This document shows positions 22,115 to 63,158 of a stretch of DNA of 64,000 bases, piece by piece. A program made the translations under genes and the position numbers. This stretch comes from Candidatus Harrisonbacteria bacterium (GTDB lineage Bacteria > Patescibacteriota > Minisyncoccia > UBA6257 > 02-FULL-45-10c). Position 1 is the first letter of the stretch; every line of letters begins with the position of its first letter. The DNA is taken from the NCBI GenBank assembly GCA_016192685.1, contig JACPTS010000001.1, positions 161,710-225,709 on the forward strand, given 5' to 3'. The notes under the pieces were generated by a model. It was not told the DNA's origin. It worked only from the letters and a program-made list of their open reading frames with translations, and did no database searches.

Positions 22115-23793
22115 GGTAATTTATATAACGCTACCGGCGGGCCGAATTCTTTAATTTTAAACAAATTAAAGGGATTTCCTAAAAGCTGGCCTATATACGG
22201 CGAATACCTCTCCTGAAATTCCCCAAAGGATTCCAATAATGCCCCGCGGGAGGCAATACTTTGAATCCGATTGAAATGCGCTGGATTTTTCTCAAAATCT
22301 ATCTGGCTGGTCAAAAGATATTGATATTTTTGCTTTTTGGCATAATTCTCCAGGCCGGAATAAAATTCCTGATTTTGAATTGTATATAAATTTAAAGCAT
22401 GAAAACTCGGCTGCTTGGGAAAATTTTCTTCCGCCAAATCTACTTTTCTTAATGACCCGGAATCAATAATTCTTTGTTCTTTAATAGCTTCCGGAGTGGC
22501 CGGCAAACGAGTTAGCCGCGCGTAAACCAAAATTTTAGAGCCGGAAGGGATATTAGCTTGAGTCCATTCTATTAAATGATTGCGTGAATCATTCTGATAC
22601 AATAAATAGCTTAATCGTAAAGAAAAAACTGCCGGCATAGCCAAGATCAGAATCAAAATAGCAATCAGAATACGACTATTAATCCTTTTATAAGACTCCG
22701 CCACGCCATAAGCAGCCATTATCGCTAATATCGGGAAAACCGGCAGAGTAAAACGATGCTCGTAACGGAAAAATAAATAAAAAATCGCGCTATATGCGTA
22801 TATAAAAAGAAATACCGGCCAAAAAAGATTACGCCTGTGAAAAACGGTAAATAATAATCCCAAAACGGCAAAAAATGCCAAAATCGGTTCAGATAATACT
22901 ACTGGCTTCAAAAAAATAAACAAACTCGTGACAATTCCCAAAATAGATTTTGTTTCCTGAAAAGTTAAATCGCCGCGAAATCCAAAACTTTGAGGATATA
23001 AAGCTCCGGGTAGAATTGCCAGCCAAGCAAAAATAACTAAACTGCCGTAAAAATATTTTTCTTTAATAAGAGCCGATAAATTTCTTTGTTCGTAAAATAA
23101 GTACCAAACGGCAATTAATATTAATAAAAGCACATTAATCGGACTGACACCTACCCCAACTCCAACCGCTAAAACCGCCGCCAAATACCTTTTCCCTAAA
23201 TCCCGCATAGCGGGATCGGGCGTCCCGCTTCGCGGGATTAGTCGAAATTCCCAATCTAAATTTAAAATCCACAACACTAAAATCGTAAAAAAAGACACTG
23301 GCAGCCAATGCCGGCCGTTAGTCGACATAAGAATATGGAATAAGCTGGTAGTCAAAAAGAATGCAGCTAGTAAAGCCGGGGCTTCCTGTCTTAAAATATT
23401 TTTTGCAACTCTATACAAGAGATAAACTGAAACAACCCCCATTAAAACATTAAAAAAACGGGCAATTAGAAAAAATTGGGATAAATCACTGGTAAGATAA
23501 TAAATAAATTGCTCCCGGCCGCCGCTAAAAAGCAGATATTTTATGCCAAGTAAAATGGAAAATGGTAAAAGATATAAGTAAGAAAGATAGGGCGGATAAT
23601 ACAAAACCGTCCTAAATTCTTCTAAATAAGACGCCGGCAGCAAAGTTTTCAGCTGGATCATTTTTAGGGCCGCCAAAGTAAATGGCGGCTCGTCATCAAT
23701 CAGCCAAAGCGGCAAACCATAATTGATACCCGCCACCCTAACCAAAAAAGCAAAAACTAATATATAGATAAGAAGCCATTTTGGACTAAACAT
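22111..23793 (-). CDS. GT-C fold membrane glycosyltransferase
   Basis: 560 aa polytopic; LIDDEPPF DE motif after the first transmembrane helix; a GC-rich double-hairpin insert lies at 23195..23250. Confidence 0.55.
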   Translation of the reverse strand: MFSPKWLLIYILVFAFLVRVAGINYGLPLWLIDDEPPFTLAALKMIQLKTLLPASYLEEFRTVLYYPPYLSYLYLLPFSILLGIKYLLFSGGREQFIYYLTSDLSQFFLIARFFNVLMGVVSVYLLYRVAKNILRQEAPALLAAFFLTTSLFHILMSTNGRHWLPVSFFTILVLWILNLDWEFRLIPRSGTPDPAMRDLGKRYLAAVLAVGVGVGVSPINVLLLILIAVWYLFYEQRNLSALIKEKYFYGSLVIFAWLAILPGALYPQSFGFRGDLTFQETKSILGIVTSLFIFLKPVVLSEPILAFFAVLGLLFTVFHRRNLFWPVFLFIYAYSAIFYLFFRYEHRFTLPVFPILAIMAAYGVAESYKRINSRILIAILILILAMPAVFSLRLSYLLYQNDSRNHLIEWTQANIPSGSKILVYARLTRLPATPEAIKEQRIIDSGSLRKVDLAEENFPKQPSFHALNLYTIQNQEFYSGLENYAKKQKYQYLLTSQIDFEKNPAHFNRIQSIASRGALLESFGEFQERYSPYIGQLLGNPFNLFKIKEFGPPVALYKLP

Positions 23794-26078: not shown

Positions 26079-26079
26079 G

Positions 26080-27282
26080 TTAAGTATTAATTAATTTATC
26101 AAAAATATTTTTAAATAATCCGGCGATTCTGTCCCAAGAATAGTTTTCTTGAACAAGCAACTGGCCATTTTTTATAATATTTTTCCTAAGTTCCGGGTTC
26201 ATTAAAAGCCGGTGGATTTTTTCCGCTAAATCCTTCGGGTTATTCACTTTGGCGAAAAGGCCGGTTGCCTGCCCTGAGCTCGTCGAAGGGTCTTTCAAAA
26301 AGTCAGTAATTCCACCGACCGGCGTTCCAATTACCGGCAAGCCGGCGGCCATAGCTTCCAAAAAAGAACTTCCCAATCCTTCAGATCGGGACGGCCGGAC
26401 AAAAATATCAGAAACTTTAAGATAAAGCGGAATATCCCGCTGCGAAATCTGACCTAAAAATAAAACATTATTTTCTAACTTGAGACTTGAGACTTTGGAC
26501 TTGAGATTTTTATATTCCGGGCCATCGCCTATTATCAAACATTTCATATTCAACATTTTACTTTTACAAATAGCAATCGCTTCTATCAAAGTATCAATCC
26601 CATTTTTATAAACCAGCCGTGAAGTGGTAACAATCACGTATTCATCTTGTAAACCTAAATTTGCCCGCGCGGCTTTTAATTCCGCGTTGGTATATCCTGT
26701 TCCGAATAATTCCAAATCTACGCCATTGGGAATAATTTCAATTGGCGCTTTTGCTCCCCGCCGCTTAACAAAATCCTTCAAATAACTGCTGATAGCCTGA
26801 ATATAATCGGCTTTTTTAATAATCATTCCTCCAAAAAATCCAACTAAACCGAATTTTCCTAAAACCATATGTTTTTCTGAATCACCCTCCTGAATAGTCA
26901 ATAAAAACGGGATTCCCGGATGGTTTAATTTAAAAAAAAGCGCGGCGATTCCGCCGTAGGAAGCCATAATGGCCCAGATCGCCTGAAAACGTTTCTGCCG
27001 ATGCAATCGCTCCGCCTCTTGCCAGGCGCTAAAAATGTAAAAAATTTTATTCCAGACTCGGCCGTATCTTTTGCCTTTATTACTGCCCTTCCCAAACCGA
27101 ATAATTTCAACGTTTTCCTGCCTTTCTTTAGACAGCCAGCGAGAATCAAATTTATAAGTAAAAACCGTGAAATTTAACCCCTTTTGTCGTTTAATAACCT
27201 CCCGGGCGGCTATCTCCGCCCCGCCCTCAAAGGGGGCATAAGCTAGAGAAAAAACCGCTATATTAGACTTATTCATAATCAT
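26080..27282 (-). CDS. GT4 family glycosyltransferase
   Basis: PSRSEGLGSSFLEAMAAGLPVIGTPVGG. Confidence 0.8.
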   Translation of the reverse strand: MIMNKSNIAVFSLAYAPFEGGAEIAAREVIKRQKGLNFTVFTYKFDSRWLSKERQENVEIIRFGKGSNKGKRYGRVWNKIFYIFSAWQEAERLHRQKRFQAIWAIMASYGGIAALFFKLNHPGIPFLLTIQEGDSEKHMVLGKFGLVGFFGGMIIKKADYIQAISSYLKDFVKRRGAKAPIEIIPNGVDLELFGTGYTNAELKAARANLGLQDEYVIVTTSRLVYKNGIDTLIEAIAICKSKMLNMKCLIIGDGPEYKNLKSKVSSLKLENNVLFLGQISQRDIPLYLKVSDIFVRPSRSEGLGSSFLEAMAAGLPVIGTPVGGITDFLKDPSTSSGQATGLFAKVNNPKDLAEKIHRLLMNPELRKNIIKNGQLLVQENYSWDRIAGLFKNIFDKLINT

Positions 27283-27311
27283 AAAAGTTATAATTAAGTA
27301 TAACTAAAGTT

Positions 27312-28454
27312 ATGAAACAAAAAGTACTCTATATAATCACTAAAGCCGATATCGGCGGCGCCCAGAAATACGTTAACGATCTATCTACTGGCATTGACAA
27401 AAACGTTTTCGAACCGAAAATTCTTTACGGCGGCCGCGATATCCACTGGTTAATCCGCGATGCTAAACCTTGGCTATTTTTTCTTCCTGACTGGCTAGCT
27501 ATTATAGAATTGATAAAAATTTATAAACGCGAACGGCCGCAAATTATCCATCTAAATAGCTCCAAAGCCGGATTTCTTGGCTCAATTGCCGCAAAATTAT
27601 ACTCATTAACTCTACGACCTACGACCTACGACCTACGACCTAAAATCATTTTCACCGCCCATGGCTGGGTATTCAACCCAACCAATGCCATCTCTCTGCC
27701 AATCCGTTGGTTTTATATTCTCCTCCATAAAATCGCCGCGTTGTTTCAAGATAAAATTATTTGTGTTTCAGAATATGACTACAATCTCGCGTTATCCCGC
27801 GGGATAACGCCAAAAGAAAAATTAGTTACAATTTATAACGGCATTGACCCGAATATTAAATTTTTAGATAAAGAAACAGCTAAAAACGAAATAACAAAAA
27901 AACTTACGACTTACGACTTGCGACTTACGACTAATTGGCCGTGGATTGGATCAATTGGGAGACTCGTTAAAGAAAAAAATTATGAAACCTTATTAGCGGC
28001 AGCGAAATTTATTCCTAATGCTTATTTTTTTATTATTGGCTCAGGGCCAGAGTCAAATAGTCTAAAAGTCAAAAGTCAAAATTCAAATGTCAATAATCGG
28101 TTTTTCTTTATTGAACCGACTGGCAATGATGCCCAATATTTAAAAGCTTTTGATATTTTTGTAATGTCCTCCATTAAAGAAGGTTTACCCTACATATTAT
28201 TGGAAGCGATGGCGGCCGAATTGCCAATTGTGATAACCGAAGCTGGCGGCATGCCGGAAATAATTAAAAATCATGAAAATGGCTTGATGGTATCGCAAAA
28301 GAATCCGGAAATGCTCGCTAAGGGCATTCAAGGATTATTATTTAATAAAAATATCGCCGCGGAACTTGGAAAATCAGCTGGTTTAATAGTCCGAGAAAAA
28401 TTCGGTTTGAATAAAATGATATCGGAAACTTCCTCACTTTATTTTGATATATAA
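27312..28454 (+). CDS. GT4 family glycosyltransferase (contains two in-frame 7-mer tandem arrays)
   Basis: SSIKEGLPYILLEAMAAELPIVITEAGG; arrays at 27613..27640 and 27903..27930. Confidence 0.8.
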   Translation: MKQKVLYIITKADIGGAQKYVNDLSTGIDKNVFEPKILYGGRDIHWLIRDAKPWLFFLPDWLAIIELIKIYKRERPQIIHLNSSKAGFLGSIAAKLYSLTLRPTTYDLRPKIIFTAHGWVFNPTNAISLPIRWFYILLHKIAALFQDKIICVSEYDYNLALSRGITPKEKLVTIYNGIDPNIKFLDKETAKNEITKKLTTYDLRLTTNWPWIGSIGRLVKEKNYETLLAAAKFIPNAYFFIIGSGPESNSLKVKSQNSNVNNRFFFIEPTGNDAQYLKAFDIFVMSSIKEGLPYILLEAMAAELPIVITEAGGMPEIIKNHENGLMVSQKNPEMLAKGIQGLLFNKNIAAELGKSAGLIVREKFGLNKMISETSSLYFDI

Positions 28455-29136: not shown

Positions 29137-30831
29137 TTATATATCAAAAATGGTGAATTTGTAAACCCTAAACATCGGCAGCCCGTTTTTCCCATAAATA
29201 ATCTTTTCCGGTTGAAGCCCTTTGCTTAATAAATAACTTTCAAATTTTAAGGCGATAGTTTTATCCTTTTTAAAAGGGTTTAAAATCGTATTTTCCGTGC
29301 TTTGCACGAAATAAAATTGGAATTTGCCGTAATCCTGGCCGCTATTTAACGCCTTATAAAAATTTTCTAAATAAAGCGCCGGCGTGCTGTGATAAAAAAA
29401 TCTGCGATAAAATATCCATTCTAAAGTCGGTAAAGCAACATTATCATTATAGACAATCATACGAAGCTCTCTATCGGCGTTTTTAGATTTCCGAAGGGCA
29501 AATTTATAAGTTAGGTCATTTAAATGCGAGTTATCCGATTCCGGAATAACCGCGGATTCTTTTCCGGCGAATTCCTCTTCAAAATAGCGATCTAATTTTG
29601 CCATTCCGTAGTCTGGATATCGGATAAAATTGGTATTAATAGAATGAATAATTTCCCAAGCAAAAAAACCGATCATCAACGCTTTTAGCGCATAACTCCA
29701 TTTCGATTTTTTAAAACTCCATAAAGCAGCCGAAAGAAAACCGACAAAAACAGCGAAGGCCGGGCCGTAAAGAGTTAAAAATCTGTGCGCTGATCCAATT
29801 TTCACCAAAAGTAAAGTAAGGAAAAAAATATACAGCCAGAAAAATAAAATTCCTTTTGAACGATTCTTGGCAAAAACAAAAATAGAATAAACTATTCCGG
29901 CCAAAATCGCCAGCATCGCCGAAATTCCATAATAACCCACGGGGAAAATAGAATTAGTTTTCGCATCCCATCTTTGAACCGCCAAATTTCTCCAAAGATC
30001 GGGGAACGGCGCCTGAGTTTTACCGACAGAACCAGTCCATTCCGGCGTCTCCTGACCAAAAACATAGGCGAACTGAAGGTCAAAATGGCCGGTAGTTTGA
30101 TAAAGATAAAAATTATATACCAAAACCGGGGAAAACATTAATAAAGCTAAAATTAAAGCGGCAAATAAATAGGCCCAATCAGTCCTAATAGTCTTATAAG
30201 TCCAATAAGTTAGATAAACCGGCACGATAAACACGCCGGTATATTTGGTAAGCGCTACCAACCCCAAAGATATTCCCCAAAGCCACCATTTCCGCTTATT
30301 TTCTAAAAATTGAAGAAATAAATGTATATTTAAAAGAATAAAAAACAGCAAAATCGGCTCCAGCATACTAAGGCGAAAAACCCACACCAAAGCCCCATTA
30401 ACCGCGAAAAATAAGGCGGAAAATAAAGCTAAGGCCTCATCTTCAAATAATTTTTTCACAATTAAATAAAGAAGATAAGCGGATAAAACGCCGACAATTA
30501 TCGCCGGCAAACGGGCTACCAAAAGCGAATCGCCGAAAACCCGGAAAAAAAAGTTCATAATCAGAATCCCAAGCGGCGGCAAATCATGAAAAGAAAGTTT
30601 AGACCACCAAGGCAACGGCTGACTTTTATACCATTCCAGAGGTGTAGTCTGAAAACTAGTGCCTAAATAATCTACATAACCAATAGCTCTAAAAGCATCT
30701 ACCGCCTCATCGCCAAATAAATCCTGGCCCCAAACACCCCAAAACCGCAGTAAAAAAGCCAATATCAAAATCCCAAACAAAATTATACGAATTTTCCGCA
30801 TATTCGTATTATTTTCGTATTTCGCAATCAT
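29137..30831 (-). CDS. GT-C protein O-mannosyltransferase-like (PMT/ArnT family, GT39/GT83-like)
   Basis: DE motif in loop 1 (FGDEAVDAFRAIGY); ...SLLVARLPAIIVGVLSAYLLYLIV...LGLVALTKYTGVF; paralog of ORF 31776..33461. Confidence 0.7.
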   Translation of the reverse strand: MIAKYENNTNMRKIRIILFGILILAFLLRFWGVWGQDLFGDEAVDAFRAIGYVDYLGTSFQTTPLEWYKSQPLPWWSKLSFHDLPPLGILIMNFFFRVFGDSLLVARLPAIIVGVLSAYLLYLIVKKLFEDEALALFSALFFAVNGALVWVFRLSMLEPILLFFILLNIHLFLQFLENKRKWWLWGISLGLVALTKYTGVFIVPVYLTYWTYKTIRTDWAYLFAALILALLMFSPVLVYNFYLYQTTGHFDLQFAYVFGQETPEWTGSVGKTQAPFPDLWRNLAVQRWDAKTNSIFPVGYYGISAMLAILAGIVYSIFVFAKNRSKGILFFWLYIFFLTLLLVKIGSAHRFLTLYGPAFAVFVGFLSAALWSFKKSKWSYALKALMIGFFAWEIIHSINTNFIRYPDYGMAKLDRYFEEEFAGKESAVIPESDNSHLNDLTYKFALRKSKNADRELRMIVYNDNVALPTLEWIFYRRFFYHSTPALYLENFYKALNSGQDYGKFQFYFVQSTENTILNPFKKDKTIALKFESYLLSKGLQPEKIIYGKNGLPMFRVYKFTIFDI

Positions 30832-31767
30832 TAAAAGGCAGTAATTTGAGGTCCGACAATCGGGAAAGAATTATTTTTAGTAATCGTAGCTACGCGGTTA
30901 AGGTCATTATAGTCGTAAGCCGAAACATCCAAGACAGATTCAATATCTAACCGAACATATGGTTTTTCCGCTCCGTAACTATAAGTAACAAAATACCCCA
31001 ATACATAATAACTATTTCCGGAGACGATTAGCCCCTTATTTTCTTTAGTTTCATTGGGAATAAGCTTAAATTCAACAACTCCACTTTGAGAAATATCCGC
31101 TTCCGCCAATACCGGACCACTATCCGCGTTAGCTAATAATTTAAATTTCGTAAGATAAAGATTATTAAAAGTGCCTTTATTTTTAAAGCGAATTTGGGTA
31201 ATAGCGATTTTTTCGTCCGCGGAAACTTTAAAAGCGGTTAAAGTTTTTTCTCCGTAACTGCTTAGGGTTATTGATGGATAGGTTGTTTCAATCTTGAGCG
31301 TGCTTTCAAAAGGATTGGGTAAGATTACTGCCGGGGTTGTAGTGGCAACAGCTTCTTCTAAAACTGGTTTAGGCTCTGGCATTGATGCTGGCTCCGGCGC
31401 TTGGGTCGGTGCCGGAGCTGGAGCTGAAACCGCTGCCGGTGCTTGCCCTGAGCTTGCCGAAGGGCCGCCCATTTTCGCCCGAGTTCTCGGACCAAAATAT
31501 CCGGCTGCCGGAGAAACTCCGTTCGCGGCCTGCCATTTGGCAAGAGCTTTCTTGGTTAGAGAACCGAAGGTTTCGGTTTCATTGCCAGGAGAGCCTGCGC
31601 CGCTAAGAGGTAAGGGGGGTGGGAGCTGCTAATTGAGTTTGCAAGTTAGCGATTTGCGCTAACAAGGCTGCAATTTGCTCTTCCAAAGTTGCTCCGTGGA
31701 CGACTGTCAATACGCCAACGCCAGAAAGCGAAACAATTGTAGCCGCTAATAATAATTTCTTTTTCAT
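30831..31767 (-). pseudogene. secreted PG-binding Ser/Thr/Pro-rich surface protein, paralog of the N-terminus of ORF 33555..37193, interrupted by a +1 frameshift in a G6/C6 homopolymer (31614..31619)
   Basis: The ATG at 31767 gives MKKKLLLAATIVSLSGVGVLTVVHGATLEEQIAALLAQIANLQTQLAAPTPLTS*, with the stop at 31603..31605. The downstream frame reopens at 31628 and continues as ...SGAGSPGNETETFGSLTKKALAKWQAANGVSPAAGYFGPRTRAKMGG... to 30831. Deleting one G from the run fuses the two into a continuous 311-aa ORF. Confidence 0.5.
31466..31698. repeat. copy 1 of a duplicated DNA cassette (139 bp plus 75 bp identical segments) encoding the signal-peptide-proximal and PG-binding module shared with the gene at 33555..37193
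   Basis: 31466..31604 is identical to 36778..36916; 31624..31698 is identical to 37019..37093. Confidence 0.85.
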
Positions 31768-31775
31768 TATTTTAA

Positions 31776-33461
31776 TTATAACTTAAATTTATAAACCGTA
31801 AACATTAAAAGATTATCATAGCCATAGATTGTTTTTACAGGGCTTAGGCGCAATTCTTGATTCAAAAATAATTCCAAATCTTCAGCGGCATTAGAATGAA
31901 ATATCGGATTCAAATACGTCTTCCGGCTTGCTTTGGCAAAATAAATATCATAGCCGTCAAATCGGCTAGCGCCGTCTTTTAAAAAATTTTTAAATTGAGT
32001 TACCGTAAAACTTGGGAAGCCGGAATAATACGTGCGCCTGGTAAAAACCCAAAGCCGCGGCGACAAAGCTATATTTTCATCATAAATAATAATGGTTGAT
32101 TTTTCGCTGGCCGGAATCCGCCGGGCGTTCATTTTAAGAAGGCGGTCTAAATGCGGATTGGAAGAAGCCGGAATGGCCAATGACCGTTTCTGGCCCAATT
32201 CAACATCAAAATAATGGTCTAAAGCAGCTATCCCAAAATCCGGAAAGGTCAGAAAAATATCAATCGCAAAAAATAATTCGTAAGCCAAAAAGGTAACCAA
32301 TAAAATCTTAAATAGAACTTCTTTGTGGAATTTAGAATATAAATAATCAAAAAAGTAAGCAATAAGCATAGCCGCGGGCGCGGCATATAAAACGATAAAG
32401 CGGAATGCCGAGCCGATTTTAATAAGCATTAGAGTAATAAAAATAAAATTAAGCAGCCAAAAAATTAAATAATTCTCATTGGTCTTATTAGTCCTATAGG
32501 ACTTATAGGTCCGATAAGCCGCCCAACCGATCCCAGTTAAGGCCGCCAAAAGAAACGGAATAGAATACATCAATGTCAAATTAGAAATAATCTCCGAAAA
32601 GGGGTCTTGAATTTTTCCTAATGACGCCCGCCATTCAGGAGTTGGCTGATTAAATACATACGCAAACTGCAAATCAAAATGGCCAACCGTCTGCCAAAGA
32701 TAAAAATTGTAAATCAAAACTGGACTAAACAATAAAAACGCTAAACCGAAAGCGGAGAACAAATAGGCCCAATCAGTCCTATCAGACCTATTGGTCCAGT
32801 AAGTCTTATAAGTCCAATAAGTTAGATAAACCGGCACCAAGAAAATACTCGTGTATTTTGTTAAAAAAGCAAGGCCGAGCGTCATGCCGAATAGCCACCA
32901 ATCTTTGGAGGTTCGACCTCCATTGGAGGTCGAACCTCCCCAAAGTTTAAAAAAATAATAAATGTTTAAAAGGATGAAAAAAATCTGGACTGATTCAAAT
33001 AAACTGGAACGGGAAATCCAGATATGAATCAAACTGAGAGAAAGCAGCAGAGGCGCGAAAAATTTTGACAATGAATTTATGAAAACTCTCTCTGATAATA
33101 GATAAACCAAATAAATTGATAAAATGCCGGCAATCGCCGACGGCAAACGGGCGACAAAAAGCGAATTTCCAAAAATTTTAAAAAATAGATTCTGGATTAA
33201 AAAAAAGAGCGGAGGATGGTCATGAAAGGAAAGATGCGTCCACCAAGGCAAGACCGCTGCGTCTTTAAACCATTGGATCGGCGCGGTTTGGTCGTCATTT
33301 TGGATATAATCCAGATAGCCGATGGAACGAAATGCGGTAAAGCCCTCGTCGTGGTAAAATTCCGAAGAACCAAGCCCCCAAAATCGCAAAAGCGCGGCTA
33401 AAAAAAGAATCGCGATTAAGACCTGTTTTTCGGTAATTTTATATCCAAAGATAGTAAACAT
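31776..33461 (-). CDS. GT-C protein O-mannosyltransferase-like (PMT/ArnT family)
   Basis: YHDEGFTAFRSIGY DE motif; LFVARLPSAIAGILSIYLVYLL; LGLAFLTKYTSIF; carries a 33-nt perfect GC-rich palindrome insert (32903..32945) that the paralog lacks. Confidence 0.7.
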   Translation of the reverse strand: MFTIFGYKITEKQVLIAILFLAALLRFWGLGSSEFYHDEGFTAFRSIGYLDYIQNDDQTAPIQWFKDAAVLPWWTHLSFHDHPPLFFLIQNLFFKIFGNSLFVARLPSAIAGILSIYLVYLLSERVFINSLSKFFAPLLLSLSLIHIWISRSSLFESVQIFFILLNIYYFFKLWGGSTSNGGRTSKDWWLFGMTLGLAFLTKYTSIFLVPVYLTYWTYKTYWTNRSDRTDWAYLFSAFGLAFLLFSPVLIYNFYLWQTVGHFDLQFAYVFNQPTPEWRASLGKIQDPFSEIISNLTLMYSIPFLLAALTGIGWAAYRTYKSYRTNKTNENYLIFWLLNFIFITLMLIKIGSAFRFIVLYAAPAAMLIAYFFDYLYSKFHKEVLFKILLVTFLAYELFFAIDIFLTFPDFGIAALDHYFDVELGQKRSLAIPASSNPHLDRLLKMNARRIPASEKSTIIIYDENIALSPRLWVFTRRTYYSGFPSFTVTQFKNFLKDGASRFDGYDIYFAKASRKTYLNPIFHSNAAEDLELFLNQELRLSPVKTIYGYDNLLMFTVYKFKL

Positions 33462-33494
33462 ATAAATAATATAAGTCCAATGGCCCCCAAAATC

Positions 33495-33521
33495 AAAACC
33501 CCCCGCAAAGCGGGGGGTTTT
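33495..33521. terminator. rho-independent terminator hairpin (bidirectional), downstream of the giant surface protein gene
   Basis: aaaaccccccgc-aaa-gcggggggtttt. Confidence 0.6.
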
Positions 33522-33554
33522 GTAATCTCTAGATTATCTCAAGTAATTTAGAAA

Positions 33555-36500: not shown

Positions 36501-37193
36501 AGCATCATCTAATAAGAGAACGCTGTCCAAAGCCGCGTCAGCAGCTAAACCAGTTCTTTCTACTGTTAATCCGGTAACAGTTACATCGCCGTCAGCAGAA
36601 GCAGTCAAGTAAACCTTAGTAAAAGGAATTCTTGCCGCATCGCCAGGAGCGAGAGTCGCTGTTGGCTGGTCTGGAGCTAACGTTACCGTTAATCCAGTGC
36701 CTTGCGGTGTTACTACCACCACTGGAGCTGGCGTTGTACCGCCAGTTGTTGGAGCTGGTGCTGGAGCCGCTGCCGCGCCGCCCATTTTCGCCCGAGTTCT
36801 CGGACCAAAATATCCGGCTGCCGGAGAAACTCCGTTCGCGGCCTGCCATTTGGCAAGAGCTTTCTTGGTTAGAGAACCGAAGGTTTCGGTTTCATTGCCA
36901 GGAGAGCCTGCGCCGCTATATTGCTGTAAGGCCTTGACTGCCGCTCCTTTGCTGCCGAGGGTGAGGTCCCCAGAAGAGGTAAGGGTAGCGGAAGCAGTGC
37001 CTGTTCCAGCTGATTCTTGAGCTGCTAATTGAGTTTGCAAGTTAGCGATTTGCGCTAACAAGGCTGCAATTTGCTCTTCCAAAGTTGCTCCGTGAGCAGC
37101 CATTGGAAGCAAAGTTCCTGCTCCGGAAAGGGAAATAACTGTCGCAATTGATACGACAGCTGTAGAAACTTTGTTAATTAATTTATTTTTCAT
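33555..37193 (-). CDS. giant secreted Thr/Ser/Gly/Ala-rich cell-surface protein with N-terminal signal peptide and peptidoglycan-binding-like domain (S-layer-like, candidate O-glycosylation substrate)
   Basis: 1212 aa. Signal peptide MKNKLINKVSTAVVSIATVISLSGAG, then a coiled segment, then a PG_binding_1-like LGSKGAAVKALQQY...ETFGSLTKKALAKWQAANGV...GYFGPRT, then more than 1000 aa of low-complexity T/S/G/A-rich beta-like repeats. Confidence 0.7.
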   Translation of the reverse strand: MKNKLINKVSTAVVSIATVISLSGAGTLLPMAAHGATLEEQIAALLAQIANLQTQLAAQESAGTGTASATLTSSGDLTLGSKGAAVKALQQYSGAGSPGNETETFGSLTKKALAKWQAANGVSPAAGYFGPRTRAKMGGAAAAPAPAPTTGGTTPAPVVVVTPQGTGLTVTLAPDQPTATLAPGDAARIPFTKVYLTASADGDVTVTGLTVERTGLAADAALDSVLLLDDAGNQLGLKKTLSSEHKATVGESMKVAAGTTKVVTVAANRAAVGGSYGGQTLALRVTAVNTSAAVNGALPLTGTTHTINETLTIGSVTMARGPLDPGASQTKEIGTTSYTFSSVKVTAGSAEKVYLKSIRWNQTGSAGSSDLGNVKTVVDGTSYDTTISSDGKYYSSVFPGSGILIDKGFNKEVNLKGDVVSGSSRTIDFDLAKRTDLFVVGETYGYGIIPPQTGSTDPTDDTAAFSNTEDPWYDAAQVLVSTGTMTVSADNTVAAQNIAINLADQPLGGWSVDVKGEQISVGSIKMHITLTQSSGTTGLGLDDLDNVKLIDAATGKTLAGPVDPSSTALDTAGTANLTFTDTITFPVGVTKLKMVGKLAAGTTAFENNDTIVASTTPSSDWGTVTGQATGVTVTPSPTSKVSGQTMTAKGPAMTVSVSSVPIAQTVIAGVQQFEFAKYILDTAASGEDLRLTSLPLEYNIPSGSATDLTNCKLYDGATLLTTGGNVVNPSARGSSTSFTFDGTGLTLTKGATKQLSLKCDLKSAATGSYRWGYDSDSSPSPTGLVSGQSATVTENDNMGQLMSATTNGSFAVTLEATENYLVASPGETVTLSRLKYSATNEDVSIKQLTLILSDGASNTPVDLVNQEVTLWDGATKLGTATFSSNDNATSTTITGFTVPKDGSKVLTVKGTLAGISASGPLVKSGDLLKVDYDGGGGLTSNYGTGLSSGQTITPTSALASSTGVRIMRAYPTFEAGTLANKTLQAQDGLPLYRFKITAKQGDINLFKLSFSVSSSTAASSNATTTKFSLYAFTDSGYSSPDGDFSGANNAGGLINAGNCYNGRTSGASAATGGNLGTGSALVEIFPDKTGCALGTTTMKIPSGESRWFELRGSVGTLAPSGTAENLSVQLEGDSAYPTLTPGQYVGSGGVTAGTLGSASTINSDGQNDFIWSPRSTSSNESNLQYQYNLDWTNGYGVTGLPATNMTATTLSK
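36778..37093. repeat. copy 2 of the duplicated cassette (N-terminus of the giant surface protein gene)
   Basis: see copy 1. Confidence 0.85.
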
Positions 37194-39050: not shown

Positions 39051-41703
39051 GTTTTAATTCGCCCTTAATAATCTTATCCGCCATTTTATCTATAATCACT
39101 TTTTGAATCAAACGCCGGAGCGGCCGGGCACCGTATTCCGGGCTATAACCATTTTCTATTAAATAATTTTTTAATGAAGCATCAATAACCAACTTCATTC
39201 CTTTTTCTTCAATCCTCTGCCTTACTTCTGCCAGCTGTTTCTCAACAATCGCTTCAATATCTTTTTTCTTAAGCGGATTAAAAATGATAATTTCGTCAAT
39301 CCGGTTCAAAAATTCCGGCTTAAAACTGTTTTTTAGCTCTTCCTGGATTTTTTCCTTAAAAACCCGACCACGCTCTTCCTGCTCGCCATCGCCGCCGCTA
39401 ATGGCATTAGCGGAAAAACCCAAATTAGCCATTTCTTTTAAGTAATGGCTGCCGACATTGGAAGTCATGATAATAATAGAATTTTTAAAATTCACTATCC
39501 GCCCCTTGCCGTCGGTAAGGCGCCCGTTATCCAAAACCTGAAGCAAAATATTAAAAACTTCCGGATGGGCTTTTTCAATTTCATCAAACAAAATCAAACT
39601 ATACGGGCGGTGCCGGACAATTTCCGTCAGCTGGCCGCCTTCTTCATAACCGACATAGCCGGGCGGCGAGCCAATCATCCGGGAAACCGCGTGCTTCTCC
39701 ATATATTCGGACATATCAATCCGCACCAGCGACTTTTCGTCATTAAACATAAATTCCGCCAGCGCTTTTGCCAGTTCGGTTTTACCGACCCCGGTCGGGC
39801 CGAGAAACATAAATGACCCAAGCGGACGATTTTCATCCGAAAGTCCCGCTCTGGCGCGCCGCAAAGCGCTGGATACCGCGCTGATTCCTTCTTTTTGGCC
39901 GATGACTCTGCCGGATAAAACCTCTTCAATTTTTACTAATTTTTCCCCTTCGGATTCCAGCATTTTCGTTACCGGAATACCGGTCCAGCGGGAAACCACC
40001 AGCGCCACATCTTCTTCATCAACGCTTTCTTTTAAAAACCGCTCAGCCCTATCAGCCCTATCAGACTTATCAGACTTATCAGACTTATTAACCTTATTAG
40101 ACTTATCAGTCCTATTAGACCAACCAGACTTATAATTCCGATTCTCAAAATTCTTGAAGTTTTTCTCGGCCAGCGGCAATTGGCCGTAAAGAATCTGGGC
40201 GACCCTTTCTAAATTGCCTTCCCGCTCGGCCACTTCCGCTTCCCGCTTTAAATCTTCAATTTTCTTCCGCAAATTATGCAAATTTTCAAAAGCGATTTTT
40301 TCCGCGTGCCATTTCGCCGATAAATCGTCATTTTTTTCTTTTAGCTCCGCGATTTCTTTTTCTACTTCTTTAATCCGCTTTTTGCTTTCGGCTCCGGTTT
40401 CTTTCAAAAGCGCTGACCGCTCCACTTCCAGGCGAGTAAGCGCCCGGCGGACTTTATCAATCTCACCGGGCAGGCTTTCCGTTTCTAAACGCCGCGCCGC
40501 GGCCGCTTCGTCCACCAAATCAACCGCTTTATCCGGCAAAAACCGGTCGGCGATGTATCTCGCGGATAAATTCACTGCCGCCAGCAAAGCCTCATCGCTG
40601 ATCCTAAGGCCGTGATGAATTTCATATTTTTCTTTAAGGCCGCGCAAAATCGTCAAACTGTCTTCCAGATTCGGCTCTTCCACTAAAATCGGCTGAAACC
40701 GCCGTTCCAAGGCCGGGTCCTTTTCAATATGCTTTTGAAATTCTTTTAAAGTAGTGGCGCCGATCGCGTGCAGTTCGCCGCGGGCTAAAGCCGGCTTTAA
40801 TAAATTAGAAGCGTCCACCGCGCCCTCTGCCGCTCCGGCGCCTACTATCATATGTATTTCATCAATAAAAAGAATGAGCCGGCCAGCCGCGTTTTGAATT
40901 TCTTTTATAAAAGCTTTTAAGCGGTCTTCAAACTCGCCGCGGAATTTCGTGCCGGCAATCAAAGAACCGATATCCAGCATTATAATTTCTTTATCCTTTA
41001 GGGGCTCGGGAACATCTCCGGAAACAATTCTTTGCGCCAATCCCTCAACAATCGCGGTTTTTCCAACGCCCGGCTCGCCGATTAAAATCGGATTATTTTT
41101 TGTCCGTCGGGAAAGAACTTGGATTACCCGCCTTAGCTCTTCATCGCGGCCGATTACCGGGTCTAATTTTCCATCGCGGGCTTTGTCCGTAAGATTGATG
41201 GCGTATTTATCCAAAACTTGAAATTTGCTTTCCGGCGTCTCATCGGTAACCCGCGTAGAGCCGCGAAGCTGGGCAAGAATCCGAAGCGCCGCCTCTCGTT
41301 TAAAACCGGCCCGCTCCAGTAAAATCTGGGCGGCGGAAGCCGTCTCTAAAATTCCGAGCAGCAAATGCTCACAGGAAATAAATTCGTCTTTTTGGGCCTG
41401 GGCAATTTTGGCGGCTTTATCCAAAACCTGCATCAATTCCTGCGACAAATACAGCTGGCCGACATTGGAAGCGGTAAAAATTTTCGGCAGCTTTTTTAAT
41501 TCTTCTTCAATCTGCTGGTCTAATTTATCCAAATTCACTCCGCTTCGCATTAAAAGCGGCTGGACTAAAGATTGGGTGTCGGGAATAAGCGCCGCCAAAA
41601 GATGGAGCGCCTTGAATTCGCCATGATTTTTTGCAGCAGCCAAGTCCTGCGCATTCTGAAGCGCTTCCTGCGCTTTAATTGTGAAACGATTGAAATTCTT
41701 CAT
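38977..41703 (-). CDS. clpB: ATP-dependent chaperone ClpB, with an in-frame low-complexity (KSD)n-like insert
   Basis: Clp N-terminal domain; two AAA modules ([24 protein letters not shown]); the middle coiled-coil; the ...VSRWTGIPV signature. The insert [34 protein letters not shown] is encoded by 9-nt periodic repeats at 40040..40135. Confidence 0.95.
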
Positions 41704-43181: not shown

Positions 43182-44540
43182 TTATAACACGCGCATTAAA
43201 ACTTTAGTCAATCGGTCAATTTCAGCTTTGGTAGTCGGCCGGCCGAAAGTGAATCGCAGACTGCTCATCGCCCGCTCTTCACTATGCCCCATAGCAGTTA
43301 AAACATGCGACGGCTGGCAGGTACGCGCAGTACAGGCGGATCCCGGAGAAACCGCGAAACCGGCCAAATCTAATTTGATAAGCAATTCTTGCGCCGCACT
43401 GCCTGGAAAATAAAAATTAAGATTATTCGGATTTCTTTTTTCCAAATCTTCCGGACCGTTCAATTTTGCTTTGGGCGCGATTTTTTTCATCCGCGCCAAA
43501 AAATACTCCTGCAATTTCCGCAATCTCTTATTTTCTGAATTTCTTGATTTCTCAACCAATTCCACTGCTTTTCCAAATCCGACAATGGCCGGCACATTTT
43601 CTGTCCCGCCCCGCAAGCCGTATTCTTGTTGGTTACCACCGGTAATAATCGGATGAAGCATAAAACTTGAAGCATGAAACATTTCTTTTTGTTTCAAGTT
43701 ACGTGTTTCATGTTTCATGAAAAGTGCGCCAGCTCCTTTTGGCCCATAAATTTTTTGCGCCGATAGCGTCAGTAAATCCACGCCCAACTCATTAACATCG
43801 CAATTTAAATAATTGAAAGCTTGGACGGCATCGGTGTGCAGCAATGGATATGCCATTGCTGAACTTTTAACATTTAACTTTTGACTTTTAACTTCTCTAA
43901 AATTTCGGATAATCTCCGAAATTTTAGAGATTGGCTGAATAATTCCCACTTCATTATTCACATACATCGCGGAAACTAAAATAGTCCGCTCGTCCAACGC
44001 ATCTTTCAGCTTTTTCAAATCCACTAATCCATTTTTATCTACAGGCAGATAAACCACCTCTACGCCGTCTTTCTCTAAGTCTCGCGCGGTTTCTAAAATA
44101 GAATCGTGCTCAATAGAAGAAACAATTATTTTAGGTAAAAATGGTTCAGCTGTTTTCGTGCGGAAACTACGGAGCTCCGATTTGCTTGGTTCCGCCGAAG
44201 GCGGAAAATCGGAGCGAGGCGTAGCGGGCTCTCGCCGCTGGAGCGAGAGAACCGCGGTTCCGGTAGAAAATTGCTGAACCATTTTCACCGCGCCCCGCAG
44301 CGCCAAGTTATTTGCTTCAGTTGCTGAGCTCGTAAAAATTATTTCCCGATAATTTGCGCCAATAGATTTCGCAACGATATCACGTGCCTGAAAAATCGCT
44401 GCCGAAGCTTCCTGCCCAAACCAATGCAAAGCCCCGGGATTGCCGAATTTTTTAGACCAGTACGGCTCCATCGCCTTTTTCACTCGCGAGTCCAGCGGCG
44501 TCCCAGCCGCGTAATCAAAATAATAACGTTTCAGCCTCAT
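43182..44540 (-). CDS. iscS: cysteine desulfurase (IscS/NifS family, class V aminotransferase), with about 45-aa and about 14-aa in-frame inserts
   Basis: YFDYAAGTP, SSATEANNLA, LLHTDAVQA, SAQKIYGPKGAGALF, class V fold; inserts at 44141..44282 (GC-rich element) and 43650..43720, 43865..43900 (AT-rich repeats). Confidence 0.85.
   Translation of the reverse strand: MRLKRYYFDYAAGTPLDSRVKKAMEPYWSKKFGNPGALHWFGQEASAAIFQARDIVAKSIGANYREIIFTSSATEANNLALRGAVKMVQQFSTGTAVLSLQRREPATPRSDFPPSAEPSKSELRSFRTKTAEPFLPKIIVSSIEHDSILETARDLEKDGVEVVYLPVDKNGLVDLKKLKDALDERTILVSAMYVNNEVGIIQPISKISEIIRNFREVKSQKLNVKSSAMAYPLLHTDAVQAFNYLNCDVNELGVDLLTLSAQKIYGPKGAGALFMKHETRNLKQKEMFHASSFMLHPIITGGNQQEYGLRGGTENVPAIVGFGKAVELVEKSRNSENKRLRKLQEYFLARMKKIAPKAKLNGPEDLEKRNPNNLNFYFPGSAAQELLIKLDLAGFAVSPGSACTARTCQPSHVLTAMGHSEERAMSSLRFTFGRPTTKAEIDRLTKVLMRVL
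44141..44282. repeat. GC-rich multi-hairpin palindromic element, copy A (in frame within iscS)
   Basis: Closing inverted repeat atggttcagc/gctgaaccat; internal hairpins ctccgattt...aaatcggag, ttccgcc-gaa-ggcggaa, ctctcgc-cgctg-gagcgagag; conserved aactacgga, gaggcgtag, cgctggag, ccggt..atagaaa. Confidence 0.8.
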
Positions 44541-46023: not shown

Positions 46024-47421
46024 TTAGACTATAATCAACTTTTTCAGATTTTGCAACTCCTTATTTAAAATATTTTTATCCGTCGATTCTATATTCAAAC
46101 GCAATAAATTTTCTGTATTGGAGGGACGAAGATTGAACCAATAATCTGAAAACTCTATTGTAAGCCCATCTAAACTTAGAATCTGCTTTGCTCCTTGCCG
46201 ATATCTCATTTCAACTGCCCGAAGAACTTTTTCTTTATCCCGAACTTCAAAATTCAGCTCGCCGGAGCGGTAGTATCTCGGCAATTTATCCAACCAACTG
46301 GCCAAATCCCCCTTCAAGGCAGAAACAAAATTTATTACTTCAATCGCCGCTAAAATTCCGGAATCGCAGTAAAAGAATTTTTTAAAGTAGTAATGCCCGG
46401 AATGTTCCAATCCTAAAGAAGCTTTCTTCTCACGCATTAATTTTTTGAAAAAATAATGGCCGACTCGAGAAATAATCGCGCCTTTTACTTTAATGCGTTT
46501 GCTGGATACTACTCCTACCACATAAGGCGATGGAAAAAGTTTTGTTAAAATATAAGCGCTTTCGTTCGGGTCAATCCACCGGCCGCGATTATCTATAAAA
46601 AATACCCTATCTCCGTCCGCGTCAAAAATCACCCCCAGATCGGCCTTTTGTTTTTTTACTTCTTTTTCCAATTGGCCAGTTGCGCCTTTTAAAAGCGGAT
46701 TCGGCCCATGCGCCGGAAAATTCCCGTCCGGATTGTCATTTATAAAAATTGTCGTTAGTTGTTTGTTGTTAGTTGTAAGTTGCCGCAATATGCGGCCGGT
46801 TGTGCCATTGGAACAATCAAAAACCACTTTTAATTTTCGTTTGGGTTTTAAAAATTTTTTAAGAAAATAAGAATACAAGGATATATCGGATTTGCCTGCG
46901 TTTCGTACGGCAACTACGGAGCCGCCAAAAGATTGGTCTCGCCGAAGGCGAGTTTTGGCGGCGAGGCGTAGGCGCGCTCCGCCGCTGGAGCGGAGCGACG
47001 CCGGTGCCGATAGAAATGCAGGCGAAGCCGATACTAATTTCAAAATTTCCTTACCGCTGATTGGCCGCGCATTTTTACCAACTACCTTTAAACCGTTATA
47101 ATTTTTAGGATTGTGAGAAGCGGTTACCATAATCCCGCCATCGGCTTTCAATTTATTAACCAAAAAATAAAGCGTCGGGGTAGTCATAATTCCTACAGAA
47201 ATAACTTTTAACTTGTAACTTTTAACTTTTAACCCGCTAGTAACTGCTTTATATAATGTAGGTGAACTTAACCGGCCATCGCGGCCAACAATTATTTTTG
47301 CCCGCCCGCCAAAATGTTTCCCAACCGCCGCGGCGATTTGAAAAGCTGTTTCCTCATTTAATTCTTCCGGGTATTTCCCCCGGACATCGTAAGCTTTAAA
47401 AATTTTTGGTTCTATCGGCAT
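46024..47421 (-). CDS. pgm: phosphoglucomutase/phosphomannomutase (alpha-D-phosphohexomutase), with an in-frame GC-rich element insert
   Basis: KAYDVRG, IMVTASHNPKNYNGLKV, GVIFDADGDRVFFID, GLEHSGHYYF. The ORF-track start at 47550 is probably too early; MPIEPKIFKAYDVRG at 47421 fits the family. Confidence 0.85.
   Translation of the reverse strand: MPIEPKIFKAYDVRGKYPEELNEETAFQIAAAVGKHFGGRAKIIVGRDGRLSSPTLYKAVTSGLKVKSYKLKVISVGIMTTPTLYFLVNKLKADGGIMVTASHNPKNYNGLKVVGKNARPISGKEILKLVSASPAFLSAPASLRSSGGARLRLAAKTRLRRDQSFGGSVVAVRNAGKSDISLYSYFLKKFLKPKRKLKVVFDCSNGTTGRILRQLTTNNKQLTTIFINDNPDGNFPAHGPNPLLKGATGQLEKEVKKQKADLGVIFDADGDRVFFIDNRGRWIDPNESAYILTKLFPSPYVVGVVSSKRIKVKGAIISRVGHYFFKKLMREKKASLGLEHSGHYYFKKFFYCDSGILAAIEVINFVSALKGDLASWLDKLPRYYRSGELNFEVRDKEKVLRAVEMRYRQGAKQILSLDGLTIEFSDYWFNLRPSNTENLLRLNIESTDKNILNKELQNLKKLIIV
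46894..47012. repeat. GC-rich multi-hairpin palindromic element, copy B (in frame within pgm)
   Basis: Closing inverted repeat gcctgc/gcaggc; hairpins ccgccaaaa...ttttggcgg, ctcgcc-gaa-ggcgag, gctccgc-cgctg-gcggagc. The same conserved single-stranded motifs as copy A, with compensatory changes in the stems. Confidence 0.8.
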
Positions 47422-55990: not shown

Positions 55991-56163
55991 GCTAGAACAC
56001 TCGCCCTTCGGGCTCTTTGGAACCCAGCGGTTCCAACCCGAGCACATAAAGCATTATGTGCTCGGTGCCTCCGCCACGAGAAAACTCCCGTTTTCCCGAC
56101 CCCTTTCCCGTGTTCGATTCACCGCAAAAATTTAAAAACGGCATTCGCCGTTTTTAAATTTTG

Positions 56164-56464
56164 TGCCTGGGCGGTGAATCGAACACCGGACGCCAGCCTC
56201 TTCCAAGGCTAACTTGGACTATATCATCACCGAGCATATAAATTTTATATGCTCGGGCTAGGCGCTTCGTCCCGCAATGCGGGACTACTCCCCGAAAGGA
56301 TAGTCTCTACACCTTCAACGATTACAAAATCGAAGCTTGGCTCGGGATTCCCAAATAAAAATGTCATTTGACCTTCCCCGAATTCACCTAGTTTTTCAAC
56401 CCCGCTTACGCGGGGAAGCCCCAAAGAATTTGAGGGCTGCGCTCTACCACTGAGCTACCCAGGC
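56164..56464 (-). tRNA. tRNA-Phe (GAA) interrupted by a group I intron between positions 33 and 34 (5' exon 56464..56433, 3' exon 56203..56164)
   Basis: Exons fold into a cloverleaf: acceptor GCCTGGG/CCCAGGC, D-arm GCTC-AGTGGTA-GAGC, anticodon stem CAGCC/GGCTG, loop CT|GAAGA, T-arm CGGTG-TTCGATT-CACCG, A73. Confidence 0.7.
56204..56432 (-). mobile_element. group I intron (229 nt, no ORF) in the tRNA-Phe anticodon loop
   Basis: P1: exon GCCCU pairs with intron GGGGC, with U.G at the splice site. P10: intron UCUUU pairs with the 3' exon GAAGA. P7 elements AGAGACUA (R) and GAUAUAGUCC (S). Terminal G before the 3' exon. Confidence 0.7.
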
Positions 56465-62436: not shown

Positions 62437-62571
62437 TATGGTCTCTCCTCTTTCTATTATCGATTTACTATCTCATAGATTACTTTAACTGAATCGTTGC
62501 GTCAAGTTCAAAAAACAAAAAACCCCGCACTGTTAGTGACGGGGCAGACCACTGGGCGAACCCAAGAACAT

Positions 62572-62607
62572 TTGTCTAACCTTTTGCGATCGCAAAAGGT
62601 TAGACAA
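62572..62607. promoter_or_regulatory. 36-bp perfect palindrome centred on GATC (candidate operator/recognition site), flanked by two terminator-like hairpins (62523..62546 and 62625..62652)
   Basis: ttgtctaaccttttgcGATCgcaaaaggttagacaa. Confidence 0.4.
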
Positions 62608-63019: not shown

Positions 63020-63158
63020 AAACCAGCTTGCATGTTTCGTAGAGCAACTACGGAAGCGCCAAAAGATTGGTGTCCTGCGAAGCAGGACTTTTGGCGCTGA
63101 GGCGTAGGCGCGGTCGCCCGCTGGAGGCGACCGACGCCGGTGCTCATAGAAATATACG
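63020..63158. repeat. GC-rich multi-hairpin palindromic element, copy C (intergenic, 3' of rny)
   Basis: Closing inverted repeat aaaccagct/agctggttt; hairpins gcgccaaaa...ttttggcgc, gtcctgc-gaa-gcaggac, ggtcgcc-cgctg-gaggcgacc. Confidence 0.8.

Follow-up and report, generated by a model that had tools for sequence, protein, structure and literature searches.

How does a GC-rich, perfectly palindromic DNA segment come to stand within the reading frame of a gene? This question is raised by a glycosyltransferase gene of Candidatus Harrisonbacteria bacterium, located in a stretch of 64,000 nucleotides (assembly GCA_016192685.1, contig JACPTS010000001.1, positions 161,710 to 225,709) that was analyzed as a whole and is called here the window. 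The gene belongs to the GT39 (PMT_2) family of the GT-C type glycosyltransferases and contains a 33-nt palindrome, which we designated as element 1. Element 1 is an insertion compared with the paralogous gene and with further homologs, it has been copied between unrelated sites and genomes, and it is read through in frame. In our view it probably represents a small palindromic element that is mobile but non-autonomous, is tolerated where it falls into loops of proteins, and resembles the REPINs (inverted doublets of repetitive extragenic palindromes, REPs) and the Rickettsia palindromic elements (RPEs). The family to which it belongs is previously undescribed and is spread across the bacteria of the Candidate Phyla Radiation (CPR, Patescibacteria).

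The palindrome and its host gene

Element 1 (positions 32907-32939) reads GGAGGTTCGACCTCC-ATT-GGAGGTCGAACCTCC, i.e., it consists of two arms of 15 bp and a centre of 3 nt, and was scored by a repeat finder as 16+1+16 nt with 100% complementarity. [quoted passage not shown] The perfect 33-nt palindrome had been reported in a preliminary description of the window, and both the letters and the repeat finder bear this out. The transcription given there was right for the palindrome apart from one surplus gg, and of the 6-bp inverted flanks that had been proposed only a cttt/aaag pair exists, across a 2-nt bulge (cc) on the right side. The peptide assigned to this region, LWGGSTSNGGRTSKDW, was given correctly; the 33 nt themselves correspond to codons 175-185 (GGSTSNGGRTS).

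The GC content of element 1 is 61%, compared with 38% for its host gene. The longest perfect stem in 60 composition-preserving block shuffles was 8-12 bp, compared with 15 bp in element 1. Even if two mismatches are allowed, the 15-mer of the arm has only two sites in the window, namely arms A and B themselves (0.04 expected), and two matches were reached in none of 100 shuffles of the window. For the hairpin, a folding energy of -31.5 kcal/mol (z = -6.1) was predicted at the RNA level and one of -19.8 kcal/mol (z = -6.9) at the DNA level. It is followed by AAAGAUUGG on the sense strand and by CCAAAG on the other strand. As there is no U-run after the hairpin on either strand and the hairpin lies inside an open reading frame (ORF), it does not have the features of an intrinsic (Rho-independent) terminator. 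A search of Rfam 15 gave no match at the gathering score, and around element 1 only chance-level hairpin matches were obtained.

The host gene (host gene 1) is intact, as all family-invariant alignment columns are kept; these include D38 and E39 of the N-terminal acidic motif, which are invariant in the GT39 family alignment. The two GT39 genes of the window match PF13231 (PMT_2) with 82.4 and 75.9 bits (cut-off 26.1). Element 1 makes up exactly 11 codons of host gene 1 and is in phase. It is absent from the paralogous GT39 gene, as had been described, the alignment showing a net gap of 8 codons in a variable loop, and it is absent from all 29 further homologs that were aligned (P0002-P0030). 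The proposal that the segment is an in-frame hairpin insertion thus agrees with its absence from the paralog and the homologs, as well as with the presence of the same arms at 36 loci elsewhere (see below). An occurrence of the same segment in orthologs in a non-palindromic form had been named as the sign of ordinary divergence; no such ortholog was found, and two orthologs carry other GC-rich hairpins in the same loop. In an AlphaFold (AF2) model of the protein (predicted template modelling score 0.83), the 11 residues encoded by element 1 are predicted to form a low-confidence loop between helices 154-174 and 185-201, with a predicted local distance difference test score below 50 at residues 177-181.

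The exact protein with element 1 (100% identity) is recorded from a single contig, which has 608 kb and belongs to a Candidatus Harrisonbacteria MAG (Parcubacteria), and one could think of an assembly or sequencing artefact, e.g., a chimeric inverted junction. We consider this hardly credible: the insertion has exactly the length of 11 codons and is in phase, the same element is found in metagenome-assembled genomes (MAGs) from many independent studies and assemblers, with the flanking genes always intact, and the exact protein containing a second hairpin insert of the window (element 2, described below) is present on 6 contigs from independent NCBI and Logan assemblies.

Copies of element 1 in other genomes

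One genome per species (185,579 species) was scanned for the pattern GGAGGTTCGACCTCC-N(1-8)-GGAGG. Note that the data comprised 64 kb of the genome studied here and 8-kb pieces of the others, so that copy numbers are lower bounds, and that the taxon labels of MAGs are those deposited. The scan yielded 55 loci, 36 of which are full or near-full symmetric elements (arm A, 3-8 nt, arm B) with differing loops and flanks; the chance expectation for 30 specified bases is ~1e-5. About 19 partial, single-strand matches in GC-rich non-CPR genomes are consistent with chance, as the 20-base pattern is expected ~9 or more times, and only the 30-base full palindromes are counted as members of the family. 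Most of these (25 of 36) are in MAGs labelled as Patescibacteria/CPR and belong to at least 8 candidate groups, including Moran-, Nealson-, Jorgensen- and Wolfebacteria, Saccharibacteria and Parcubacteria/Paceibacterota, and five further copies are in MAGs labelled only as "bacterium". One to three exact copies per genome were found, several genomes possessing two or three.

The element measures 33-38 nt over the family, with AT-rich loops of 5 nt (14 of 25 copies), 3 nt (7 of 25), 4 nt (3 of 25) or 8 nt (a single copy). Particular loops are found repeatedly: ATAAT/ATTAT at five loci, three of which lie in separate genes of the same Moranbacteria MAG, CTTTT at four loci, and CAA/TTG at five loci, including the ligase gene of a Saccharibacterium and the isoleucyl-tRNA synthetase (IleRS) gene of Nealsonbacteria. 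The recurrence of loop subtypes at non-homologous sites and in different genomes argues for copying. There are also variant subfamilies in which both arms are changed in concert (GGAGGTCCGACCTCC with GGAGGTCGGACCTCC, GGAGGCTCAACCTCC with GGAGGTTGAGCCTCC), the outer GGAGG...CCTCC being constant in all of them. In one MAG, the palindrome forms the core of a 112-nt repeat that is present in three copies. No consistent direct repeat (target-site duplication) was detected at the ends of 25 copies, and neither a target-site motif in the flanks nor a GTAG or CGTC tag in the arms was found.

A single local origin of the palindrome, by template switching or correction of a quasi-palindrome, or by divergence of a loop that became palindromic by accident, was considered as well. 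The loop concerned is hypervariable in length among the homologs, and template-switch mutations can make perfect inverted repeats. However, identical 15-bp arms at 36 loci (~1e-5 by chance), loop subtypes common to different genomes and an element of 61% GC within a gene of 38% GC make such an origin very improbable. As the same arms are found at 36 loci elsewhere, ordinary divergence and a one-off local event are ruled out, and a local origin of element 1 is refuted by this recurrence across genomes; for element 2, such an origin is possible.

Matches outside cellular genomes were sought as well. A viral collection gave six matches, all in one unrelated GC-rich phage gene, and PLSDB plasmids and GenBank phages gave no match. 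In a literature search, the 15-mer of the arm was found in no paper, nor was a paper found that links palindromic, REP or MITE elements with CPR bacteria. A Planctomycetota MAG contains a tandem array built on the same 15-mer, i.e., the sequence of the arm also occurs outside the CPR bacteria.

Two candidate origins of the arm were rejected. Its GG-TTCGA-CC part resembles the T-loop of tRNA, although the loop has 5 nt (or 3 nt with a 6-bp stem) instead of 7, and the variants replace the TTCGA core; derivation from a T-arm was therefore discarded. A recombinase core site of the lox or dif type was discarded as well: with a central spacer of variable length (3 to 8 nt), a hairpin is a better fit than a duplex of fixed geometry.

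About three quarters of the CPR-type copies lie in frame within long open frames. The arms are free of stop codons in all six frames (with the peptides GGSTS/GGRTS, EVRPP/EVEPP and RFDL/RSNL), and all three reading frames are used among the genic copies. The host genes represent at least 17 protein families, and their ORFs are open and their Pfam domains intact on both sides of the element, as is expected for RPE-like in-frame insertions. According to Pfam, they encode proteins of DNA repair (NAD-dependent DNA ligase LigA, twice and at different positions, UvrA, UvrD, RecG), proteins of translation (IleRS, the phenylalanyl-tRNA synthetase β-subunit PheT, CysS, peptidyl-tRNA hydrolase Pth, RsmH), as well as enolase, asparagine synthase (AsnB), two aminotransferases, prepilin peptidase (PilD), FeFe hydrogenase and an MFS protein. 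In two LigA proteins that were compared, a 35-nt copy corresponds to an insertion of 12 residues. The host ORF stays open whether the copy has 33, 34 or 35 nt, from which it follows that the segment is read through and that there is no excision of the bare palindrome. The conservation of the frame thus suggests that the segment is translated. The resulting peptides (GGSTS..EVEPP, GGSTSxxEVEPP, GGSTSxGGRTS and RFDLxGRSNL; an example spanning the element is KLWGGSTSNGGRTSKDWW) can serve as markers of the element. A synthetic protein of concatenated element peptides was compared with a database of 5.8 billion proteins, which gave 98 word-sharing candidates, none of them with E <= 10.

The same observations bear on the idea that the hairpin is an intervening sequence of the RNA, which a splicing endonuclease or an enzyme similar to RNase III, for example, would recognize and cut out of the transcript. 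The hairpin is indeed very stable and perfectly symmetric, a group I intron is present in the window, CPR genomes are known for intervening sequences in their rRNA and tRNA genes, and a ~125-nt family of the window (see below) folds like an RNA, with strong covariation and, on the sense strand, a UUCG tetraloop. Nevertheless, we regard removal from RNA as highly improbable. The 33-, 34- and 35-nt copies are all in register with the downstream domains, and excision of a bare 34- or 35-nt palindrome would shift the frame; six stop-free frames would be needless in an excised segment; the perfect stem lacks the bulge-helix-bulge geometry; and no Rfam family was matched.

Intergenic copies occupy the short space that separates neighbouring genes of the same direction. 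Several copies are located in or beside clusters for type IV secretion systems (T4SS; PrgI, T4SS pilins), namely at L039:3110-3502, L058:1966-2358 and L047:6615-7461. This proximity may be a coincidence, or it may hint at how copies could be transferred from one CPR lineage to another.

A different kind of evidence comes from orthologous sites that are filled in more than one species. In four such sets the arms are 100% identical, whereas the coding flanks are 71-94% identical (L023/L028, flanks 72.5%, element 31/31; L042/L050, flanks 71.3%, arms identical with one loop change; L039/L058/L035, flanks 80-85%, element 35/35; L024/L052, flanks 94%, arms identical with two loop changes). At 72% identity, the probability of 28 unchanged positions is ~1e-4. 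The invariance of the arms at old sites implies that something still reads them, either a mobilizing machinery that re-copies or corrects the element or a host factor.

With a host factor, element 1 would be a functional cis-acting site under host-level selection. A conserved CPR protein might bind it as a hairpin or cruciform, or it might act within the mRNA, the GGAGGU/ACCUCC arms of the hairpin affecting translation or decay. Such a site may have spread or been exapted after insertion and is compatible with a mobile origin; as an explanation in its own right it is the main rival and possible, though rather unlikely. The identical arms beside diverged flanks, the loops that are free to vary, the GGAGG...CCTCC that is invariant over the subfamilies, the low copy number and the REP-like position of the intergenic copies would all suit it. 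However, the host genes and the positions within them are unrelated (at least 17 protein families, two positions in LigA), the element is absent from most orthologs and is read in each of the three frames, and the missing U-run excludes a terminator. Moreover, three copies with a single transition have a mismatch rather than a G-U wobble on the sense strand (judged by eye; with n = 3 this is a weak point).

Relation to known palindromic elements

Palindromic repeats within genes are best compared with the RPEs. According to the accounts of Ogata et al. (2000) in PMC10969869 and PMC3733652, RPEs are ~100-150 bp long and are found in frame in Rickettsia genes, and PMC10969869 mentions 44 RPE insertions in metabolic genes of R. 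conorii. Like RPEs, element 1 is a palindromic hairpin repeat standing in frame in unrelated, intact housekeeping genes; in both cases, the encoded peptide is accepted in a loop or on the surface of the protein, the host genome is small and reduced and leaves little space between genes, and there is no linked transposase. However, RPEs are limited to Rickettsia and reach ~100-150 bp and dozens of copies per genome, whereas element 1 has 33-38 nt, occurs in many CPR groups with one to three exact copies each, and has arms that are invariant even at old orthologous sites. Size and hosts set it apart from RPE-1 to RPE-10.

With REPs and REPINs (PMC3733652; Bertels and Rainey 2011, PMC3116915), element 1 shares short, GC-rich palindromic units that form a longer hairpin as an inverted pair, the lack of a target duplication, and intergenic copies that follow closely after an ORF where the adjacent genes have the same direction. 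Intragenic REP dimers of other bacteria are reported mainly from DNA-repair genes (UvrA, UvrD, ligase) and from genes of tRNA synthetases (Di Nocera et al. 2013, PMC3733652), i.e., in strikingly similar classes of host genes. In contrast to these repeats, which have a GTAG or CGTC tetranucleotide conserved at one REP end (PMC3733652), element 1 has no such tag, and its unit is 15 nt long rather than 20-40. Furthermore, classical REP families are mainly extragenic with tens to hundreds of copies per genome, whereas element 1 has a low copy number and most of its copies are intragenic; no REP-associated tyrosine transposase (RAYT) is among the 25 most recurrent families of the ORFs within 3 kb of the copies, and the arms are identical across deep phylogenetic boundaries.

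The perfect 15-bp terminal inverted repeats, the absence of coding capacity and the 112-nt, three-copy repeat of one MAG are reminiscent of MITEs. These, however, measure 70-300 bp, cause target-site duplications and have a parent insertion sequence; elements 1 and 2, with 33-48 nt, show no consistent duplication, and no parent element was found. Short hairpin elements have also invaded the coding regions of organelles, as exemplified by the GC clusters of yeast mitochondria. Repetitive hairpin-forming elements in coding regions are described for sponge mitochondria (PMC2800124), and coding palindromes for those of Nematomorpha (PMC6649704). Like element 1, such hairpins are short, invade compact AT-rich genomes and can sit in genes that are still translated; however, they are organellar, lineage-restricted and unrelated to element 1 in sequence, and the nematomorph repeats are no insertions, both of their arms coding for conserved parts of proteins. 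Element 1 thus works like a REPIN or an RPE but departs from each of them in defining features, and is unusual in its small size, its CPR-wide distribution and its invariant arms.

As an explanation for all this we favour a mobile element. Two inverted, GC-rich mini-hairpins of 15 nt (GGAGGT-TCG-ACCTCC) around an AT-rich centre of 3-8 nt would behave as an extremely compact REPIN or as a miniature RPE, the hairpin-forming unit being copied to new sites by an enzyme acting in trans. By analogy, a candidate for this enzyme is an HUH/Y1 transposase of the RAYT or IS200/IS605 type, which reads hairpins of single-stranded DNA and makes no target duplication. Selection would then keep those copies that stand in frame in tolerant gene loops or in short intergenic gaps, because CPR genomes offer almost no other room. 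At old sites, the enzyme or a host factor would keep recognizing the arms, which may be why they are unchanged.

Several observations weigh against a mobile origin. First, arms that are 100% identical between flanks of 71-85% identity are unlike decaying selfish DNA and point to a continuing constraint, possibly a host function. Second, no mobilizing enzyme was detected: among the 127 ORFs within 3 kb of the 36 copies, the 25 most recurrent families include no transposase (122 families were matched, the recurrent ones being pilins, T4SS components and housekeeping genes). Third, no clean empty site was obtained for element 1, as host gene 1 has a net gain of 8 codons for an element of 11 codons in a variable loop. 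Fourth, the copy number is low, with one copy in the window, and in the flanks of 25 copies, where no GTAG or CGTC tag is present, a weak bias towards T at position -1 (28 of 50 half-sites) is the sole signal. Finally, six of the 36 copies are in low-GC MAGs that are labelled, as deposited, as Bdellovibrionales, Gammaproteobacteria or Bathyarchaeia, and no second copy of element 2 could be demonstrated.

Other hairpins in the window and their meaning for CPR proteins

The positions of element 1, of the further inserts and of their host genes are compiled in the following table.

Features of the window and of related contigs (positions with the prefix L refer to metagenome contigs or loci)
Feature	Position	Strand	Remarks
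Element 1, 33-nt perfect palindrome	32907..32939	.	codons 175-185 of the GT39 gene (minus strand)
Arm A, GGAGGTTCGACCTCC	32907..32921	+	mini-hairpin GGAGGT-TCG-ACCTCC
Arm B, GGAGGTCGAACCTCC, reverse complement of arm A	32925..32939	+	mini-hairpin GGAGGT-CGA-ACCTCC
Host gene 1, GT39 / PMT_2 glycosyltransferase, 561 aa	31776..33461	-	Pfam PF13231, 5.5e-23; contains element 1
Paralogous GT39 gene	29137..30831	-	46% amino acid identity to host gene 1; element 1 absent
Element 2, 48-nt (16-codon) in-frame insertion, LIPRSGTPDPAMRDLG	23195..23242	-	boundary ambiguous by 1 nt
Host gene 2, GT-C glycosyltransferase (PMT_2 / Glyco_transf_22-like), 560 aa	22111..23793	-	Pfam
~125-nt family, copy 1	44153..44270; wider span 44150-44278	-	in frame in cysteine desulfurase (IscS-like) gene
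~125-nt family, copy 2	46900..47017; wider span 46897-47025	-	in frame between domains I and II of phosphoglucomutase gene
~125-nt family, copy 3	63034..63153; wider span 63031-63161	-	3' end of, or just past, HD-domain gene
GGACATC/GATGTCC inserts	L001:8424-8516, 9324-9380; L003:1684-1728, 2431-2565		
Variant subfamilies and single-arm copies of element 1, tandem array of its arm	L007:838-881, 4271, 4745; L037:1994-2027, 7395-7420; L054:7496-7510; L018:5740-6110		

Element 2 is located in a further GT-C glycosyltransferase gene of the window (host gene 2), which matches PF03901 with 26.8 bits (cut-off 23.8) and PMT_2 with 25.1 bits, slightly under the cut-off. The double hairpin that had been described for this gene is present, with ATCCCGC-ATA-GCGGGAT at 23200-23216 and TCCCGC-TTC-GCGGGA at 23223-23237; on the sense strand, these are read as TCCCGC-GAA-GCGGGA and ATCCCGC-TAT-GCGGGAT between the imperfect inverted ends CTAA(A)TCCCGC. 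The predicted fold has -30.6 kcal/mol (z = -4.7), and no Rfam family is matched by element 2. Element 2 is absent from all 19 aligned orthologs (the closest being 78-80% identical), and for two orthologous loci the empty site could be read at the DNA level from a codon alignment: TTTCGG|AAAAGG (L061) and TTCCAG|AAAAAG (L060), compared with TTTCG-[48 nt]-GAAAAGG in the window. The insertion was thus precise, with an ambiguity or duplication of at most 1 nt. A scan of metagenomes for two successive TCCCGC-N3-GCGGGA hairpins gave more than 120 loci, none with the spacer, the loops or the flanks of element 2; these are mostly unrelated REP-like repeats of GC-rich genomes. Elements 1 and 2 are different and unrelated elements of the same general kind.

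Further hairpins are found in the orthologs of host gene 1. In the closest ortholog (L001), the same loop contains a different insert, the perfect hairpin TTCCGTCCCGC-AGA-GCGGGACGGAA, and in another ortholog (L003) it contains a third, imperfect GC-rich hairpin. A further hairpin family in coding sequence is found in the GT39 orthologs as well: its palindromic inserts are in frame and based on two heptamers, GGACATC/GATGTCC (peptide RTSDV/RTPDV), and one of them is a 93-nt hairpin of -45 kcal/mol. The hairpin GTCATTCCCGCG-N3-GCGGGAATC is present with conserved flanks at three unrelated CPR loci (L003:1053-1090, L033:613-650, L039:3013-3050) and looks like another small repeat family.

The larger element family mentioned in the preliminary description is real as well: it is ~125 nt long and has three copies in the window, two of them in frame. 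Compared with solved structures, it adds ~43 residues to the IscS-like protein and a segment between domains I and II to the phosphoglucomutase. The copies share a GC-rich fold of several helices that has, on the mRNA-sense strand, a UUCG tetraloop; compensatory changes are present at 26 of 46 predicted pairs among the three copies (n = 3). No Rfam match was obtained, and the family may be an RPE-like element, to which it is nearer in size than element 1, or a structured RNA without a match in Rfam. Element 2, the ~125-nt family and the inserts of L001 and L003 support the earlier suggestion that GC-rich hairpins are seeded into coding sequence by a process of a general nature, and show that such seeding is recurrent in this lineage.

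The other long, perfect GC-rich hairpins of the window are intergenic, four of five being located downstream of a stop codon; the one at 33494-33522 looks like a terminator. A scan of the window for GC islands was too unspecific to list more inserts. The longest palindrome of the window, a perfect AT-rich one of 40 nt (ATTTGTCTAACCTTTTGCGA|TCGCAAAAGGTTAGACAAAT) at 62570-62609, is intergenic and lies between two minus-strand ORFs. The group I intron (Rfam, 73 bits) at 56194-56442, on the minus strand, adjoins a T-arm-like inverted repeat at 56106-56190; the region 56106-56442 is probably a tRNA gene interrupted by this intron and was not called by ARAGORN.

Three GT-C/GT39 genes and several GT4 genes form a glycosylation cluster in the region around host gene 1, and a metagenome contig of 97 kb (L001) shows synteny with this region. 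The GC content is 34-48% across the window, in which tandem repeats of two periods are found. In-frame repeats with a period of 9 nt (TAT-AAG-ACT type; 30164-30215, 32482-32524, 32767-32827, 40043-40133) encode Y-x-T triplets in loops of both GT39 paralogs (YLTYWTYKTYWTNRSDRTD, YRTYKSYRTNKTN), the array being longer in one of them, and the ClpB gene holds a 9-copy array of a repeat of this period. Repeats with a period of 7 nt, with ~4-5 copies and 31-35 nt each, are located at 24194-28093 (GT4 genes), 43862, 46754, 47202 and 51721 (units AACTTAT, GATTCCT, TGTTGTC, CTACGAC and others), several of them inside a single glycosyltransferase ORF. Blocks of 142 and 76 nt (in 31464-31698 and 36777-37094) are 100% identical between the 5' end of a gene for a 1212-aa PG_binding protein and the region beside the ORF 30831..31472. 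In the syntenic contig, two extra genes are present there, encoding a 343-aa PG_binding protein and a 509-aa protein; a deletion in the recent past, or a recent conversion between paralogous genes, is therefore suggested.

Genomes of CPR bacteria are tiny and tightly packed, and are usually regarded as poor in mobile DNA. The hairpin elements described here stand in frame in essential genes, i.e., those for DNA ligase, UvrA, UvrD, RecG, tRNA synthetases, enolase and cell-envelope glycosyltransferases. Tentatively, and with more doubt than for the mobile nature of element 1 as such, the doublet of GGAGGTTCGACCTCC, with its 33-38 nt little more than two recognition hairpins, might represent a mobile element family smaller than any described so far, kept throughout the CPR by a hairpin-specific machinery acting on coding DNA. 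If so, arms that stay invariant while the neighbouring codons diverge by up to 29% would mean either that the machinery continually re-copies or corrects them, or that the hairpin serves the host, possibly in translation (the arms resemble Shine-Dalgarno and anti-Shine-Dalgarno sequences) or in DNA transactions. Together with the covarying ~125-nt family and the other inserts, this would imply that CPR proteins are routinely remodelled by parasites acting at the level of nucleic acids. Such elements may explain a part of the lineage-specific insertions in CPR proteins, and for annotation their peptides are a recognizable marker that should not be taken for protein motifs. Few Saccharibacteria are cultivable, but it is in these that the question of which enzyme or host factor reads the hairpin can be put.

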